Below, in pieces: positions 1-50,658 of a DNA stretch of 64,000 bases. Position 1 is the stretch's first letter, and every line of letters begins with the position of its first letter. This stretch comes from Escherichia phage GEP001. Location of the stretch: the sequence record PV173775. One strand, given 5' to 3'. The position numbers and the translations under genes were made by a program. The notes beneath the pieces were generated by a model, which worked only from the letters and a program-made list of their open reading frames with translations, did no database searches and had not been told where the DNA came from.

Positions 1-38
1 CGCGACGTTATCGCTCGTACCTTTACTGAGAGTCTGTA

Positions 39-260
39 ATGGCAAAGATAATTATTGAAGGTTCTGAAGATGTGCTAAATGCTTTCGCCGAATGGTTTAG
101 TAATTCAGGCGAACAACAATTTAACGAAGCATGGAACATGGGTGATATTAATGGAATTTATCCTACTACAGAAATTTCTGTTCAGGGATATGGCATTCAT
201 GAACCTATTCGTTTAGTTGAATACGATTTATGTACTGGTGAGGAAGTCAAATATGATTGA
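39..260 (+). CDS. hypothetical small protein (73 aa)
   Basis: ATG with GAGAG upstream; stop overlaps next start (ATGATTGA); operon context. Confidence 0.5.
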   Translation: MAKIIIEGSEDVLNAFAEWFSNSGEQQFNEAWNMGDINGIYPTTEISVQGYGIHEPIRLVEYDLCTGEEVKYD

Positions 261-519
261 AGATATTAAAGGTTATAAGCCGCACACTGAAGAGAAAATC
301 GGTAAAGTAAATGCTATTAAAGACGCTGAAGTTCGTTTAGGACTTATCTTTGATGCTTTATACGATGAATTTTGGGAAGCATTTGATAGCTGTGAAGATG
401 ATGAACTCGCAAAGAATTATGCTGAAAGTCTCGATCAGTTAACTATTGCTAAAACGAAACTCAAAGAAGCCAGTATGTGGGCTTGTCGTGCAGTGTTCCA
501 ACCAGAGGAAAAATATTAA
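253..519 (+). CDS. small protein (88 aa), candidate Vs.4/Acb2-like anti-CBASS sponge by position only
   Basis: ATG 253 after GAGGAAG; two genes upstream of regB where T4 has vs.4; synteny and size only. Confidence 0.45.
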
Positions 520-797
520 TGGCTCAATTAAGCGCAGGGTTTGGTTATGAGTATTATACTGCCCCTCGTCGTGTATCTGTTGCTCCTAAGAAAATTCAAA
601 GTCTTGATGACTTCCAAGAAGTAGTCCGTAAAGCTTTCCAGGACTACGCACGTTATCTTAAAGAAGATTCACAGGACTGTCTCGAAGAAGATGAAATTGC
701 TTACTATGAGCAGCGTCTTGAACAGCTTAAAAACCTACATGAGGTTCGTGCAGAAGTTTCAAAGTCTATGAATAAATTGATTAGATTTAAAGAATAA
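519..797 (+). CDS. hypothetical protein (92 aa)
   Basis: ATG overlapping previous stop (TAATG), GAGGAAAA SD; immediately upstream of regB promoter. Confidence 0.5.
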
Positions 798-799
798 TT

Positions 800-829
800 G
801 TTTACTTTTCCTCTTGACTGTGGTATAAT
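800..829 (+). promoter_or_regulatory. T4-type early promoter (regB)
   Basis: GTTTAC 800-805, 18-nt spacer, TGTGGTATAAT ending 829. Confidence 0.6.
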
Positions 830-856
830 TTTTCTATCAGTTAAGAGGAGAATAAC

Positions 857-1318
857 ATGACTATCAACACTGAAGTTTTTATCCGTCGAAATAAGCTTCG
901 TCGTCACTTTGAGTCGGAGTTTCGTCAAATTAACAATGAGATTCGTGAGGCATCAAAAGCAGCAGGGGTCTCATCGTTTCATCTAAAATATTCTCAGCAT
1001 CTTCTTGATCGTGCAATTCAACGGGAGATTGATGAGACATACGTTTTTGAATTATTCCACAAAATAAAAGACCATGTTTTAGAAGTTAATGAATTCCTGA
1101 GTATGCCTCCGCGTCCTGACATTGACGAGGATTTTATTGATGGGGTTGAATATCGTCCTGGGCGTTTAGAAATCACAGATGGAAATCTTTGGCTTGGATT
1201 TACAGTTTGTAAACCTAATGCGAAGTTCAAAGACCCGTCGCTTCAATGTAGGATGGCAATTATCAACAGTCGTCGTTTACCAGGAAAGGCTTCTAAAGCA
1301 GTAATTAAAACTCAATGA
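857..1318 (+). CDS. regB: RegB site-specific endoribonuclease
   Basis: 153 aa protein matching T4 RegB in length and sequence as recalled; AAGAGGAG SD; early promoter upstream. Confidence 0.85.
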   Translation: MTINTEVFIRRNKLRRHFESEFRQINNEIREASKAAGVSSFHLKYSQHLLDRAIQREIDETYVFELFHKIKDHVLEVNEFLSMPPRPDIDEDFIDGVEYRPGRLEITDGNLWLGFTVCKPNAKFKDPSLQCRMAIINSRRLPGKASKAVIKTQ

Positions 1319-1325
1319 GGTAAGC

Positions 1326-1871
1326 ATGAGAAAAGCACTACTCGCTGGTCTATTGGCCATTTCAATGATGGCACATAGCTCCGAGCATACTTTCAGTAAT
1401 GTCCAACTCGATAACATGCGTTACGCGTATCAATTCGGGGAACAATTTTCTAAGGATGGAAAATATAAAACACACAAAAATATCCACAAGAGCGGATTGG
1501 GTCATATAATGGCTGCTATTTTATGGCAAGAAAGCTCTGCCGGAGTTAATTTAAAATCTAAACCAAAGCATCATGCCTACGGAATGTTCCAAAATTATTT
1601 GCCGACTATGCGAGCAAGAATTAAGGAACTTGGTTATAATATGACCGATGCCGAAATAAAAAGAATGTTGAATAAACGGTCCAATTCAGCTTCCTGGGCG
1701 TACATTGAACTTTCTTATTGGTTAAATATACATAAGGGTGATATAAGAAAGGCAATATCCTCTTATAATTCGGGATGGAATGTTAAAGCAGGTTCTAAAT
1801 ATGCTTCTGAAGTCCTAGAAAAGGCTAACTACCTTAAAAATAATAAACTTTTGGAAATAGTAAATGACTAA
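1326..1871 (+). CDS. secreted lytic transglycosylase/SLT-like protein
   Basis: N-terminal signal peptide; ES...GMFQ catalytic-type motif of SLT/lysozyme-like domains; position of T4 vs.1. Confidence 0.6.
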   Translation: MRKALLAGLLAISMMAHSSEHTFSNVQLDNMRYAYQFGEQFSKDGKYKTHKNIHKSGLGHIMAAILWQESSAGVNLKSKPKHHAYGMFQNYLPTMRARIKELGYNMTDAEIKRMLNKRSNSASWAYIELSYWLNIHKGDIRKAISSYNSGWNVKAGSKYASEVLEKANYLKNNKLLEIVND

Positions 1872-2205
1872 AATTTTGGTTTTATGTATAGGATTAATTT
1901 CATTTTCTGCGTTAGCAAATACATCATATACTGAAATTAGAGAGTATGTAAACCGTACTGCCGCGGATTATTGCGGGAAAAATAAAGCATGCCAAGCTGA
2001 ATTTGCGCAGAAATTAATATATGCATATAAAGACGGAGAAAGAGATAAATCAAGCAGATACAAGAACGATACTTTATTAAAACGATATGCTAAAAAGTGG
2101 AATACCTTAGAATGTTCAGTTGCGGAGGAGAAAGATAAAGCCGCTTGTCATTCAATGGTTGACCGTTTGGTAGATTCTTATAATCGAGGATTGAGTACTA
2201 GATGA
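1864..2205 (+). CDS. hypothetical secreted protein (113 aa)
   Basis: ATG overlapping upstream stop; hydrophobic N-terminal signal-like segment. Confidence 0.55.
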   Translation: MTKILVLCIGLISFSALANTSYTEIREYVNRTAADYCGKNKACQAEFAQKLIYAYKDGERDKSSRYKNDTLLKRYAKKWNTLECSVAEEKDKAACHSMVDRLVDSYNRGLSTR

Positions 2206-2681
2206 TTGTAAAATATATCAAGGGCGATATTGTCGCCCTATTTCTTCAAGGTAATATTATTGCGCACGGATGCAACTGCTTCCACACAATGGGCTCTGGT
2301 GTAGCGGGTCAATTAGCAAGAGCCTATCCCAAAATTTTAGAAATAGATAAAACCACTACCGAGTACGGTTCTCGTGATAAATTAGGCGATATGTCTATTG
2401 TTTTTAAACATAATCCTACAGGATTTGGTATATGCTATAACCTGTATACGCAATACGAACCGGGTCCTAATCTTGATTATGATGCTTTAGTAAATTGCAT
2501 GATAGAATTAAATCTACAGGCAGAAACCCTTTTGTTTAAACCAGTAATTTATATTCCACGTATAGGTTGTGGTATTGCTGGCGGTGATTGGGATAAGGTT
2601 TCTAAATTAATCGACATGTTTACTCCTGATATTGATTTAATAGTGGTGGATTATGAAAGCACATTACCCGCATCCGTTTGA
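2202..2681 (+). CDS. macro domain protein (ADP-ribose binding/processing)
   Basis: GDI...NIIAHGCNC...GSGVAGQLARAYP pattern typical of macro domains; GAGGA SD; coupled start. Confidence 0.6.
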   Translation: MIVKYIKGDIVALFLQGNIIAHGCNCFHTMGSGVAGQLARAYPKILEIDKTTTEYGSRDKLGDMSIVFKHNPTGFGICYNLYTQYEPGPNLDYDALVNCMIELNLQAETLLFKPVIYIPRIGCGIAGGDWDKVSKLIDMFTPDIDLIVVDYESTLPASV

Positions 2682-2865
2682 TCCTAAAAACAAAGCGGAA
2701 ATTATTCGTCAATGGGAACGCATTTGCCGTACTAAATGCCCAATTAATAGTCCACATGATGTAGATAAAGACTATATTGGAACATTCGTTGAATATACCT
2801 TTATTGATAGGAAAGGTCGTAAACAACATGTAGAAGAATATTGCTTAAAGGTTACATGGTTATGA
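2653..2865 (+). CDS. hypothetical protein (70 aa)
   Basis: ATG with GTGGTGGA upstream; overlaps end of macro gene; same-strand operon. Confidence 0.5.
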   Translation: MKAHYPHPFDPKNKAEIIRQWERICRTKCPINSPHDVDKDYIGTFVEYTFIDRKGRKQHVEEYCLKVTWL

Positions 2866-3068
2866 GCCAAACTAGTATTCTTAAAAATGCCCATTGTGAA
2901 AAGTGTAAATGGCCAGTTGTTTTTGCTTTATGCAATGATGAAATGGCTTGTGATTTCGATTATTGGTGCTATTGCTCTAATAAAGGATGCATCAATCATA
3001 AAGGCGAAGGATTTTATTCGGGATTTTATCCTTATCCCGATTTCATTAAAGAAGGTAAACCAAAATGA
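2862..3068 (+). CDS. Cys-rich small protein (68 aa), possible zinc binding
   Basis: ATGA start/stop overlap with upstream gene; AAAGG SD 9 nt upstream; multiple Cys pairs. Confidence 0.5.
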   Translation: MSQTSILKNAHCEKCKWPVVFALCNDEMACDFDYWCYCSNKGCINHKGEGFYSGFYPYPDFIKEGKPK

Positions 3069-3238
3069 ATAATTTTGAGTTACAATATGAAGTGTTACGT
3101 GAACTTGATAATTTAATTGAACTCGCTGTTAATAAAGGTTTTGCCATTGGAATTGGTCAAAAAGATACTGATCATTTAACTATGGAAATATTTAAGCAAA
3201 AACGAATTATTTTAAAACTTCTGGAAATTAATATATGA
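3065..3238 (+). CDS. hypothetical small protein (57 aa)
   Basis: ATGA overlaps at both ends link it to flanking genes; below 60 aa so absent from ORF track. Confidence 0.4.
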   Translation: MNNFELQYEVLRELDNLIELAVNKGFAIGIGQKDTDHLTMEIFKQKRIILKLLEINI

Positions 3239-3420
3239 GTCTGAGCAAAGAACAAAAAGATAAATTGTTTGAGCTTATCCATGAACTTCTAGATGAGCAT
3301 ACAGAAGCAAACACCTTTTATGATGAATACGGCCCGCTATCTCCCGATCAGCAAGAAGAATTTGCTGATCGGTTTGATAAGAAAGAAAATGAATTAATAG
3401 CTTATGTGAATACGCTTTAA
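3235..3420 (+). CDS. hypothetical acidic protein (61 aa)
   Basis: ATGA overlap with upstream ORF; directly precedes tk. Confidence 0.5.
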   Translation: MSLSKEQKDKLFELIHELLDEHTEANTFYDEYGPLSPDQQEEFADRFDKKENELIAYVNTL

Positions 3421-3429
3421 GAAGGTGAT

Positions 3430-4011
3430 ATGGCGAGTTTAATTTTTACTTATGCAGCAATGAATGCTGGAAAATCTGCTTCTCTTTTGACTGCTGCGCA
3501 TAATTATAAAGAACGCGGAATGGGTGTATTAGTTCTTAAGCCTGCTATTGATACTCGCGATTCTGTTTGTGAAGTCGTTTCTCGCATTGGAATTAAGCAG
3601 GAAGCGAATATTATTACGGATGATATGGATATTTTTGAGTTCTATAAATGGGCTGAAGCACAAAAAGATATTCATTGTGTATTTGTAGATGAAGCACAGT
3701 TTTTAAAAACTGAACAGGTGCATCAATTAAGCCGAATTGTCGATACATATAATGTTCCTGTTATGGCTTATGGACTAAGGACTGATTTCGCTGGAAAATT
3801 ATTTGAAGGTTCTAAAGAACTTTTGGCTATTGCAGATAAACTTATTGAACTGAAGGCAGTTTGTCATTGCGGTAAAAAAGCGATTATGACAGCTCGATTA
3901 ATGGAAGATGGAACACCAGTTAAAGAAGGTAATCAAATCTGTATTGGTGATGAAATTTATGTTTCTTTGTGTAGAAAACATTGGAATGAATTAACTAAAA
4001 AGCTCGGTTAG
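3430..4011 (+). CDS. tk: thymidine kinase
   Basis: 193 aa; P-loop NAGKSAS; C-terminal CHCG...C zinc motif typical of type II thymidine kinases; matches T4 Tk. Confidence 0.95.
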   Translation: MASLIFTYAAMNAGKSASLLTAAHNYKERGMGVLVLKPAIDTRDSVCEVVSRIGIKQEANIITDDMDIFEFYKWAEAQKDIHCVFVDEAQFLKTEQVHQLSRIVDTYNVPVMAYGLRTDFAGKLFEGSKELLAIADKLIELKAVCHCGKKAIMTARLMEDGTPVKEGNQICIGDEIYVSLCRKHWNELTKKLG

Positions 4012-4053
4012 TGCAAAAGTTATAAATAGGTTTATCTAACTAAAGGGGTATAT

Positions 4054-4266
4054 ATGCTACAATTAACTGAAAAGCAACTTCGCAATCTTACTGTGCTTCA
4101 ATTAGATGAAATTCGTAGGGAAGTTGGAAATATCATTTCAGCTTTGCGTCGAGAAGTATCGCTCAACCAATCTCCGGCAGACTATACTAGATTGCGAAAT
4201 TTTGAAAAATACCTTGATAAAGTTAAGGCCGTGCACCGGCATAAAGTAAATACAGGACAAAAATGA
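4054..4266 (+). CDS. hypothetical protein (70 aa)
   Basis: ATG after AAAGGGG SD; between tk and rI. Confidence 0.55.
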
Positions 4267-4278
4267 TAGGAGGCCTTT

Positions 4279-4572
4279 ATGGCCTTAAAAGCAACGGCAC
4301 TATTCGCCATGCTAGGATTAGCGTTTGTTTTATCTCCGCCGATTGAAGCGAATGTCGATCCTCATTTTGATAAATTTATGGAATCTGGTATTAGGCACGT
4401 TTATACACTTTTTGAAAATAAAAGCGTAGAATCGTCTGAACAATTCTATAGTTTTATGAGAACGACCTATAAAAATGACCCGTGCTCTTCTGATTTTGAA
4501 TGTATAGAGCGAGGCGCGGAGATGGCACAATCATACGCTAGAATTATGAACATTAAATTGGAGACTGAATGA
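4279..4572 (+). CDS. rI: lysis inhibition regulator RI (signal-anchored periplasmic antiholin)
   Basis: 97 aa, N-terminal membrane anchor, sequence matches T4 RI as recalled; TAGGAGG SD. Confidence 0.85.
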   Translation: MALKATALFAMLGLAFVLSPPIEANVDPHFDKFMESGIRHVYTLFENKSVESSEQFYSFMRTTYKNDPCSSDFECIERGAEMAQSYARIMNIKLETE

Positions 4573-42493: not shown

Positions 42494-43126
42494 ATGATTT
42501 ATTATATGCACAAAAATCCACCGTTTAAATATGGTAAATTTCCTGATGCACAATGTTATAATATAACACCTAATGAAAATAACCGTGGATATCTTATTGG
42601 CACAATTTTTGTAATTGTTAAAGATAACGAAATCGTTGCCTGGGCAGATTTTAAAGGTACAACATATGATGTTAATCCGGTGCCTTTCACATATTACAAT
42701 TTAATGGATTTGGCATACGATTATAATTGGTTTAATCATGATACTTTGGCTCATATTGAAGGTGTAGGATTTGATATTTCATATTCGGAATACACTTTAA
42801 GCCCTATGAGTCGAGCCCATAAAGAACCTGAATATTTTTCATTTAGGAAACGTGTAAACTTTAAACGCAGCACAGAGTATATCGGTGGAATCTTTGTTAA
42901 AGATAATCGAATTATTCGTATTAATTATCCTTTGAGCGTTAGTCAAAAAGATATTGATGTTGATTTAGATTTCACTGAAAATAATATTAATAATATTGCT
43001 TCTGTGTATTTTGGTATCGATCACAAAATTGTAATATGTGGATATGAATTACCGTTTGAAGAACAGCCTAAAGTAAAAGTTTCTATTGACGATCAAATTT
43101 TTAATGCTTTTATGAATAAAGGTTAA
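42494..43126 (+). CDS. hypothetical protein (210 aa) with two internal VKDN-motif repeats
   Basis: ATG 1 nt after sp stop; C-terminal SIDDQIFNAFMNKG shared with next ORF. Confidence 0.55.
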   Translation: MIYYMHKNPPFKYGKFPDAQCYNITPNENNRGYLIGTIFVIVKDNEIVAWADFKGTTYDVNPVPFTYYNLMDLAYDYNWFNHDTLAHIEGVGFDISYSEYTLSPMSRAHKEPEYFSFRKRVNFKRSTEYIGGIFVKDNRIIRINYPLSVSQKDIDVDLDFTENNINNIASVYFGIDHKIVICGYELPFEEQPKVKVSIDDQIFNAFMNKG

Positions 43127-43127
43127 T

Positions 43128-43484
43128 ATGTATAGTTCTGAATTTTCATATTTAAAAATGGAAAAAATTTCATACGATTTTATAGATGAAAAGGTTTATT
43201 ACAGTTTCCATGAACCGCGTTTTAATAGTGAGGTTGGGTTTATTGTAGTAAAAGACAATTTCATTTTAAAGATATATTCGGCATTAAAGGATTTTCACTA
43301 CGAAAATATTAACCTAAAATTTGATAAAGAAAACGTTCGTAATTGTGCAGTAACAATTACAGGAAATAAAGGTACATGTGTTATGCTATCTGATGAAATT
43401 AATGATTTGCTAAATGATGTAGAAAAGGTTGCTGTTCCATCGATTGATGACCAAATTTTTAATGCTTTTATGAATAGAGGTTAA
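43128..43484 (+). CDS. hypothetical protein (118 aa), single copy of the VKDN-motif domain
   Basis: ATG 1 nt after upstream stop; C-terminus PSIDDQIFNAFMNRG nearly identical to upstream ORF. Confidence 0.55.
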   Translation: MYSSEFSYLKMEKISYDFIDEKVYYSFHEPRFNSEVGFIVVKDNFILKIYSALKDFHYENINLKFDKENVRNCAVTITGNKGTCVMLSDEINDLLNDVEKVAVPSIDDQIFNAFMNRG

Positions 43485-49435: not shown

Positions 49436-50059
49436 ATGATTATTAATCTTGCAGATGTTGAACAGTTATCTATAAAAGCTGAAAGTGTTGATTTTCAATA
49501 TGATATGTATAAAAAGGTCTGTGAAAAATTTACTGATTTCGAGCAGTCAGTTCTTTGGCAATGTATGGAAGCCAAAAAGAATGAAGCTCTTCATCGGCAG
49601 TTGAATAAAATCATTAAAAAGCATTTAACTAAATCACCTTATCAGCTATATCGTGGTATATCAAAATCGACAAAAGAGCTCATTAAAGATTTACAAGTTG
49701 GAGAAGTGTTTTCAACGAATAGAGTAGATTCATTTACTACTAGTTTGCACACAGCATGTGGTTTTTCTTATGTTGAGTATTTCACTGAAATAATATTTCG
49801 CTTAAAAACTGATAAAGCTTTTAATTATTCTGACCATATCAGCGATATTATACTTTCTTCTCCTAATACTGAGTTTAAGTATACATATGAAGATACTGAT
49901 GGATTAGATTCAGAACGTACTGATAACTTAATGATGATTGTGCGTGAACAAGAATGGATGATTCCAATTGGAAAGTATAAAATAACTTCTATTTCAAAAG
50001 AAAAATTACACGATTCATTTGGAACATTTAAAGTGTATGATATTGAGGTAGTTGAATGA
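49436..50059 (+). CDS. modB: ADP-ribosyltransferase ModB
   Basis: 207 aa from ATG 49436 (GGAGG SD); R-S-E ART triad context (YRGIS...STN...E); paralog of adjacent gene. Confidence 0.7.
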   Translation: MIINLADVEQLSIKAESVDFQYDMYKKVCEKFTDFEQSVLWQCMEAKKNEALHRQLNKIIKKHLTKSPYQLYRGISKSTKELIKDLQVGEVFSTNRVDSFTTSLHTACGFSYVEYFTEIIFRLKTDKAFNYSDHISDIILSSPNTEFKYTYEDTDGLDSERTDNLMMIVREQEWMIPIGKYKITSISKEKLHDSFGTFKVYDIEVVE

Positions 50060-50658
50060 AATATTCAGCAATGCAATTAAAAGATTTTAAAATCAAATCA
50101 ATGAATGCATCGGTGCGTGCTTCTATTCGTGAAGAATTACTTTCTGAAGGATTTAATTTATCCGAAATTGAACTTTTAATTCATTGTATTACTAATAAGC
50201 CAGACGATCATTCTTGGTTAAATGAAATAATCAAATCTCGTTTGGAACCAAACGATAAACCTCTTTGGAGAGGTGTTCCAGTTGAGACTAAGCAGGTGTT
50301 AAATCAAGGAATTGATATTATTACATTTGATAAAGTAGTATCAGCTTCATATGATAAAAATATAGCTCTGCATTTTGCTTCTGGATTAGAATACAACACA
50401 CAAGTTATTTTTGAATTCAAAGCTCCTATGGTATTTAATTTTCAGGAGTATGCTATAAAAGCTCTACGTTGTAAAGAATATAGTCCAAGTTTTAAGTTTC
50501 CAGATAGCCATCGCTATCGTAATATGGAATTAGTTTCAGATGAACAAGAAGTAATGATACCAGCTGGAAGTGTATTTAGAATTGCAGATAGATATGAGTA
50601 TAAAAAGTATTCAACATACACTATCTATACTCTTGATTTTGAAGGATTTAATCTATAA
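50056..50658 (+). CDS. modA: ADP-ribosyltransferase ModA
   Basis: 200 aa; ART motifs (LWRGV...SAS...); ATGA overlap with modB. Confidence 0.7.
   Translation: MKYSAMQLKDFKIKSMNASVRASIREELLSEGFNLSEIELLIHCITNKPDDHSWLNEIIKSRLEPNDKPLWRGVPVETKQVLNQGIDIITFDKVVSASYDKNIALHFASGLEYNTQVIFEFKAPMVFNFQEYAIKALRCKEYSPSFKFPDSHRYRNMELVSDEQEVMIPAGSVFRIADRYEYKKYSTYTIYTLDFEGFNL

Follow-up and report, generated by a model that had tools for sequence, protein, structure and literature searches.

The macrodomain gene of Escherichia phage GEP001 is the ortholog, by position as well as by sequence, of the phage T4 gene tk.4, also known as adfM. As judged from alignments, its product belongs to the Gln-type, ALC1-like (SCO6735/BT1257-like) macrodomains. 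The protein is probably a stand-alone ADP-ribosylglycohydrolase of the ALC1/TARG1/DarG-like class, which would act early in infection and reverse the ADP-ribosylation of thymidine by DarT2 through residues N25 and Q84. Both the gene with its macro fold and the protective role of the T4 ortholog against DarTG2 have already been described, and what is added here beyond the published adfM work is modest. The accessible portions of the two AdfM papers contain neither the Gln-for-Lys site matching that of SCO6735, nor the separate lineage of the PhiKZ protein, nor the two-allele cassette described below.

The window analysed is the whole stretch of 64,000 nucleotides of sequence record PV173775, which derives from a Tequatrovirus; the 2.8 kb around tk.4 are 98% identical to Shigella phage CT01, Escherichia phage GADU22 and many others. 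The tk.4 reading frame begins with ATG and encodes 159 amino acids (its coordinates in Table 1 take in the stop codon). The gene order regB, vs.1, vs, macrodomain gene, tk.3 ... tk is the same as in T4, and a macrodomain gene also occupies the vs-to-tk.3 position in Dhakavirus VR5 and Tequatrovirus F26. The vs stop and the tk.4 start overlap in an ATGA, an arrangement shared with T4 that looks like translational coupling inside an early regB-vs.1-vs-tk.4 block. A promoter scan of positions 1..4300 returned 12 sigma-70-like sites, compared with 16.3 expected by chance. Near the 3' end of the gene (2640..2681), a 13-nt deletion relative to T4 has moved the stop codon and added a 9-residue tail, YESTLPASV, and because of this deletion the last part of tk.4 overlaps the first 29 nt of tk.3. 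These nine C-terminal residues are a low-confidence tail.

Table 1. Coordinates of the features discussed, in positions of the window.
Feature	Position	Strand	Basis or remark
regB	857..1318		early block, 5' side of tk.4
vs.1	1326..1871		between regB and vs
vs	1864..2205		directly 5' of tk.4
ATGA, vs stop/tk.4 start overlap	2202..2205	+	sequence reading
tk.4/adfM-type macrodomain gene	2202..2681	+	ORF, Pfam Macro, PHROG 335, T4 tk.4 positional orthology
Putative loop 1, H22-G-C-N25-C-F-H-T-M-G31-S-G33	2265..2300	+	alignments, conservation
N80-L-Y-T-Q84 strand end	2439..2453	+	alignment columns, conservation
Putative phosphate-binding loop, P119-R-I-G-C-G-I-A-G-G-D-W130	2556..2591	+	alignments, conservation
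Divergent allele block	2250..2680	+	pairwise DNA alignment, 60-nt identity profile
tk.3 (DUF7202)	2653..2865	+	first part overlaps tk.4 end
tk	3430..4011		beyond tk.3
T4 61.2 (AdfA) homolog	42494..43126	+	tblastn, 72% identity over 210 aa
modB + modA ADP-ribosyltransferase genes	49436..50658	+	context

A side observation concerns the start of the gene. Codons 7-13 of tk.4 (2221..2239) hold a potential hairpin with a perfect 8-bp GC-rich stem, AGGGCGAT-ATT-GTCGCCCT, and a T-rich tail. It lies within 48 nt with 100% identity to T4, immediately 3' of which the match collapses. Dhakavirus VR5 retains the stem although synonymous changes occur in the loop and immediately downstream; the stem is missing from Marfavirus F48, and the region is annotated as 'terminator' in some GenBank records. 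Its fold energy is not clearly better than that of shuffled sequence (z=-1.55; 12/200 shuffles). The hairpin could be an attenuator, an RNA-processing element, a recombination boundary, or chance.

A preliminary description, made from the sequence, had called this reading frame a macro-domain protein. The assignment holds, and the motifs it quoted are present in the translation. The product matches the Pfam Macro profile (PF01661) over nearly its whole length (E=2.5e-8, 34.3 bits, gathering cut-off 22) and PHROG 335 with E=6e-72. An AlphaFold2 model, computed from an alignment of 60 homologs from which the T4 sequence was left out, has a mean pLDDT of 94.8 and a pTM of 0.89, with disorder predicted in the final three residues alone (157-159, pLDDT <50). 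The score above the gathering threshold is thus accompanied by the three-layer alpha/beta/alpha fold of the family. Loops predicted to bind ADP-ribose, G31-S-G33 (the GxG motif) and the Gly-rich G122-C-G124-I-A-G-G, are both present in the alignment. In a sequence search of the PDB the best matches were BT1257 (1.8e-11), yeast Poa1p (1.5e-9) and Streptomyces SCO6735 (5.8e-8), followed by the Mycobacterium tuberculosis DarG macrodomain 5M3I (4.7e-5) and human TARG1 (7e-3). The MacroD/Af1521-type hydrolases, with which a comparison had been proposed, are not the closest structural class; proteins of the SCO6735/BT1257 type are nearer. The product is acidic (pI 4.9), while the DarG and BT1257 macrodomains have a pI of 8.7-9.0 and PhiKZ AdfM one of 5.05. 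As evidence on whether the protein binds DNA, net charge was discarded as uninformative, since PhiKZ AdfM is biochemically active and just as acidic.

The T4 gene lying between vs and tk.3 is tk.4, which is annotated 'phosphatase; contains A1pp phosphatase motif'. BLASTP aligns the GEP001 and T4 products ungapped over 155/155 residues (58% identity, 74% similarity, E=1e-70), and this identity, together with the vs-to-tk.3 position, therefore makes the gene the tk.4 ortholog. The two proteins are of about equal length and have an identical loop 1 (AHGCNCFHTMGSGVAGQL) and an identical NLYTQ motif. However, 42% of the residues differ, synonymous sites are saturated, and the phosphate-binding loop reads GAGIGKGNW in T4 Tk.4 and GCGIAGGDW in GEP001. 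Since the differing positions include this loop, the specificity of the GEP001 allele could differ from that of T4. The GEP001 allele is found in hundreds of GenBank genomes, some of which label it 'macro domain-containing protein'.

What is known of the T4 gene comes mainly from a preprint of November 2025 (bioRxiv 10.1101/2025.11.20.689424). There, tk.4 was the sole significant match when a T4 transposon library was challenged on a DarTG2 host (HIDEN-SEQ), a clean tk.4 knock-out makes T4 sensitive to DarTG2, and the gene was renamed adfM, for anti-DarT factor Macrodomain. The check proposed in the preliminary description, comparing infections of a DarT-expressing host by phage that has or lacks the gene, has thus been published for the T4 ortholog. 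The adfM finding fills a gap, because T4 lacking both adfA and adfN stays resistant to DarTG2, as do T4 or T2 lacking adfN (PMC11825919). Enzymatic removal of ADP-ribose from DNA by T4 AdfM is described in the November preprint only as something that 'seems likely'. In T2-infected cells the Tk.4 protein has been detected (bioRxiv 10.64898/2026.06.19.733364). The same study captured the T2 tk.4 mRNA with the host sRNA ArcZ on Hfq by RIL-seq and found the level of Tk.4 protein unchanged in a delta-arcZ host; tk.4 is mislabelled there as a 'putative thymidine kinase'.

Conservation of the putative active site was assessed in a set of 121 sequences, the 120 best database homologs and the query. 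In loop 1, H22, G23, N25 and C26 are shared by 119/119 of the homologs aligned there, and 121/121 have G33, part of the GxG ADP-ribose-binding motif. H22 and N25 match His24 and Asn27 of SCO6735, and N25 also matches N23 of DarG/PhiKZ; the functional role of this Asn is described in PMC9411070 and PMC13309987. N80, Y82 and Q84, at the end of a strand, are unchanged in every one of the 121 sequences. The column holding Thr83-Gln84 is that of the Thr-Lys of TARG1 (K84), DarG (K80) and PhiKZ gp104 (FPTK), and BT1257 also has Gln there. The equivalence of the Q84 column comes from a multiple alignment and a profile-to-PDB alignment. For SCO6735 (5E3B), the direct alignment covers the phosphate-binding-loop segment only, and the equivalence of its H24, N27 and Q85 rests on the TARG1, DarG and BT1257 columns combined with the structure-based alignment of PMC9411070. 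In the phosphate-binding loop itself, the tk.4 product (PRIGCGIAGGDW) is near-identical to SCO6735 (PRIGCGLAGGTW) and BT1257 (PRIGCGLAGGKW), whose loops can be written jointly as PRIGCGLAGG.W. G122 and G124 occur in 119/121 sequences, with gaps in the remaining two.

This combination of a Gln at the TARG1 K84/DarG K80 column with the loop-1 Asn places the tk.4 product, on the alignments, in the Gln-type class. PMC9411070 treats this Gln as what sets SCO6735 and ALC1 homologs apart from homologs of TARG1 and DarG. SCO6735 lacks the catalytic residues of TARG1 and DarG and carries Gln85 at the Lys position. It is nevertheless an efficient hydrolase of thymidine-linked ADPr-DNA and protects E. 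coli against DarT; activity is lost in the Q85A mutant and nearly lost in N27S (PMC9411070). In the mechanism put forward there, hydrolysis is water-mediated and the distal ribose is positioned by the Gln; K80A served as the catalytically inactive DarG control (PMC9411070). Like Tk.4, SCO6735 and BT1257 (2AFC/2FG1) are stand-alone proteins with Gln in place of the catalytic Lys and an H-x-x-N motif. They differ from it in being cellular rather than phage genes and in being only about 25-29% identical to the GEP001 product. SCO6735 further has Val25 where GEP001 has Gly23. The basic 'mobile loop' that follows the Gln in SCO6735 and BT1257, which holds Lys89/Lys94 and is 5-6 residues longer, is missing from the Tk.4 family; in the alignment the 5-6-residue insertion of BT1257 has no counterpart in the tk.4 product. 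Bacterial homologs were also considered as DarT-linked antitoxins and set aside, as the single homolog whose surroundings were inspected, from Pelagimonas (40% identity), is encoded by a stand-alone gene on the chromosome and has no ADP-ribosyltransferase neighbour.

The Lys-type enzymes stand further off. The K84/D125 dyad of TARG1/OARD1 (4J5S) is replaced by Q84/A126 in the GEP001 protein, which therefore does not qualify as TARG1-type. DarG (Thermus aquaticus 5M31/5M3E, M. tuberculosis 5M3I) uses the catalytic Lys80 where GEP001 has Gln84. Against the NCBIfam DarG equivalog (NF048014) the tk.4 product scores 28.5 bits, well short of the cut-off of 250, and it matches positions 3-144 of a 329-position model, so that the C-terminal DarT-binding domain of DarG is lacking. 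The neighbours of tk.4 are vs and tk.3, and neither is a darT gene. On these sequence comparisons the tk.4 product is not a DarG antitoxin.

The name AdfM was given independently to gp104 of phage PhiKZ (Cell Reports 2026, PMC13309987). Like T-even AdfM, gp104 is a stand-alone macrodomain encoded by a phage and acts against DarTG2. The phage nucleus imports it, and in vitro it removes DarT2-installed ADP-ribose from a TNTC oligonucleotide, an activity impaired by N23A. Unlike the GEP001 product, gp104 retains the Lys in its FPTK motif. With the PADLOC DarG model, gp104 scores 132.9 bits, the tk.4 product 28.5 bits and T4 Tk.4 36 bits. A PDB search with gp104 returns DarG structures at 1e-24 to 1e-19, with BT1257, TARG1 and SCO6735 all absent at E<=1, and BLASTP aligns only 23 residues of gp104 with the tk.4 product. 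Because the DarG-model scores, the PDB matches and this short alignment all differ in this way, the two AdfM proteins are, by sequence, different lineages of one fold class: gp104 classifies as a Lys-type, DarG-like orphan antitoxin and T-even AdfM as a Gln-type stand-alone macrodomain.

Under the preferred reading, the tk.4 product would be made early, with the regB-vs.1-vs block, and would strip DarT2-attached ADP-ribose from thymidines in single-stranded phage DNA, so that phage replication could proceed and the abortive defence by DarTG2 would be neutralised. The chemistry would be of the Gln type seen in SCO6735, in which N25 would lock the invariant Q84, Q84 would position the distal ribose, and water would carry out hydrolysis, and it would not be the Lys-dependent chemistry used by DarG and TARG1. 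By analogy, we infer that the 58%-identical GEP001 allele shares the target of the T4 protein and that protection is enzymatic.

The sequence of the gene is mosaic with respect to T4. DNA identity is 95-100% through vs and the first 48 nt of tk.4, drops abruptly to ~45-75% across the divergent block, and recovers within tk.3. For codons 17-155 of tk.4, dS is about 3.2 (pS=0.74, saturated) and dN 0.42, whereas regB, vs.1, vs and tk have a dS of 0.09-0.20 and a dN of 0.003-0.005; tk.3 has an elevated dS of 0.59, mainly at its 5' end, and a dN of 0.036. The dN/dS of tk.4 is about 0.13, which indicates purifying selection. Saturated synonymous sites amid flanks of low dS therefore indicate that GEP001 tk.4 is an old divergent allele moved by recombination, rather than a product of recent fast evolution. 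The 5' bias of dS in tk.3 would place the right-hand recombination junction of the cassette inside that gene. The GEP001 allele is at least 90% identical in about 312 phage records; the T4 allele is at least 90% identical in about 224, with another 159 at 80-90%. Both circulate among otherwise near-identical Tequatrovirus backbones. The closest relatives of the GEP001 allele outside its group, which include Dhakavirus VR5, are 73-80% identical. GEP001 has the family-majority residue at every tabulated conserved position, and it is T4 whose phosphate-binding loop is atypical, with G126, K127 and N129 as minority states. The tk.3-tk interval (2841..3420), which adjoins the tk.4 block, is not collinear with T4 tk.2/tk.1; because its DNA identity to T4 is poor, it appears by sequence to be a second mosaic block. 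Its reading frames encode a 75-aa Cys-rich 'phage zinc binding domain' protein (PF23895), a 57-aa protein without family and a 61-aa DUF7438 protein.

Several other functions were weighed against enzymatic repair of DarT2 marks. As SCO6735 also inhibits DarT by binding it, protection need not be purely catalytic, and the tk.4 product might antagonise DarT2 mainly by 'interaction-inhibition', as DarG and SCO6735 can, sequestering or occluding the toxin or shielding ADP-ribosylated DNA. Inhibition of DarT persists in the catalytically dead SCO6735 mutant Q85A and exceeds that by DarG K80A or TARG1 K84A (PMC9411070), the T4 evidence is purely genetic (bioRxiv 10.1101/2025.11.20.689424), and turnover of whole alleles would fit a protein-protein interface in an arms race. 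However, the putative catalytic and ADPr-binding residues are invariant in the 121 sequences, which come from very different phages and bacteria, and an enzyme is therefore to be expected over a toxin-specific binder. The absence of the DarT-binding domain of DarG points the same way, and a mainly binding-based role is considered unlikely. A small-molecule enzyme, be it a Poa1p-like Appr-1''-p phosphatase, an O-acetyl-ADP-ribose deacetylase or a degrader of an ADPr-derived immune signal, is very unlikely. Yeast Poa1p (6LFQ), a close match in the PDB search, is described as a small-molecule phosphatase, but the 'phosphatase' label of tk.4 was transferred from the family name, the NCBIfam O-acetyl-ADP-ribose deacetylase models give 18 bits against a cut-off of 291, and such an activity would leave the DarTG2-specific phenotype of T4 unexplained. 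T4-type RNA repair (Pnkp/Rnl1) is not known to generate Appr-1''-p. The GEP001 allele could also have been retargeted from DarT2 to another ADP-ribosylating defence, such as RNA ADP-ribosylation, other DarT clades or other ART toxins. Its ancient divergence from the T4 allele, the co-occurrence of both in near-identical backbones and their different phosphate-binding loops speak for this. Yet it is T4 that departs from the family majority, the dN/dS points to purifying selection instead, and T-even phages are still sensitive to the mRNA ART CmdTAC, according to the abstract of PMC11618068. Retargeting is accordingly given only a slender chance.

The preliminary description had coupled the macrodomain to the phage's own ADP-ribosyltransferases, suggesting that it might tune them or else counter a host ADP-ribosylating defence. 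Both transferase genes are indeed present in the window: the ModB (49424/49436..50059) and ModA (50056..50658) reading frames match PHROG 832, and ModA is 96.5% identical to T4 modA. A 248-aa reading frame after modA was considered as a homing endonuclease and rejected; its position and length match T4 srd. The tk.4 product might thus erase or tune the marks set by Alt, ModA and ModB, or ModB RNAylation, on host proteins, but no functional link between modB/modA and the macrodomain gene was found in the window, where they lie 47 kb apart and share no operon. The family is also spread more widely than the enzymes it would serve. It was found in 2789 phage records, including Salmonella (293), Pseudomonas (184), Vibrio (138) and Acinetobacter phages, and in groups that are not T4-like (rV5-like, Felix O1-like, Vi1-like, PhiW-14 and a Bacillus phage). 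Alt/Mod enzymes are rare or absent in Pseudomonas, Vibrio and Salmonella phages, in which the macro family is abundant. There are 927 records with ModA/B homologs and 1222 with Alt homologs, nearly all from T4-like phages of enterobacteria, Acinetobacter or Aeromonas. A detectable Alt/Mod-type ART is therefore lacking in over half of the phages that carry the macro family. Alt and Mod modify arginine, and Arg-ADPr is normally removed by ARH/DraG-type enzymes; the known ALC1-class hydrolases act on Asp/Glu esters and thymidine and are not known to remove arginine-linked ADPr. SCO6735 and TARG1 do also use protein substrates (PMC9411070), but in the T4 screen tk.4 was singled out on the DarTG2 host only (bioRxiv 10.1101/2025.11.20.689424). 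Erasure of the phage's own marks is thus scarcely credible, whereas the other half of the suggestion, defence against the host, is borne out by the T4 ortholog and DarTG2.

DarTG systems are widespread anti-phage toxin-antitoxin modules, against which T-even phages stack AdfA (61.2), AdfN (30.3) and AdfM (tk.4). Orthology to AdfM replaces the misleading 'phosphatase' and 'hypothetical' labels across hundreds of T4-like genomes and, by analogy with T4, predicts that GEP001 would be resistant to DarTG2. Since the active site of T4-type AdfM appears to be of the Gln type, mechanistic assumptions and mutants derived from DarG should not simply be transferred to it. The tk.4 locus holds at least two ancient alleles exchanged by recombination. 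It is a speculative and rather doubtful extension of these observations that T-even phages recruited a Gln-type genome-protecting macrodomain independently of PhiKZ and that the two tk.4 alleles neutralise different ADP-ribosylating toxins. Were the alleles to differ in specificity, for example for DarT2 variants that are recognised by binding or for other nucleic-acid linkages, swapping of tk.4 alleles would be a determinant of host range.

The window also encodes a homolog of T4 61.2 (AdfA), which is an anti-DarT factor according to literature cited in PMC11825919 and PMC13309987. Directly downstream of it lies an extra 118-aa reading frame (43128..43484, + strand); in T4, 61.1 follows directly after 61.2. 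The C-terminal half of its product is 35% identical to 61.2 over 103 aa and shares the ending ...SIDDQIFNAFMNRG, and by sequence it looks like a truncated tandem AdfA-like paralogue.
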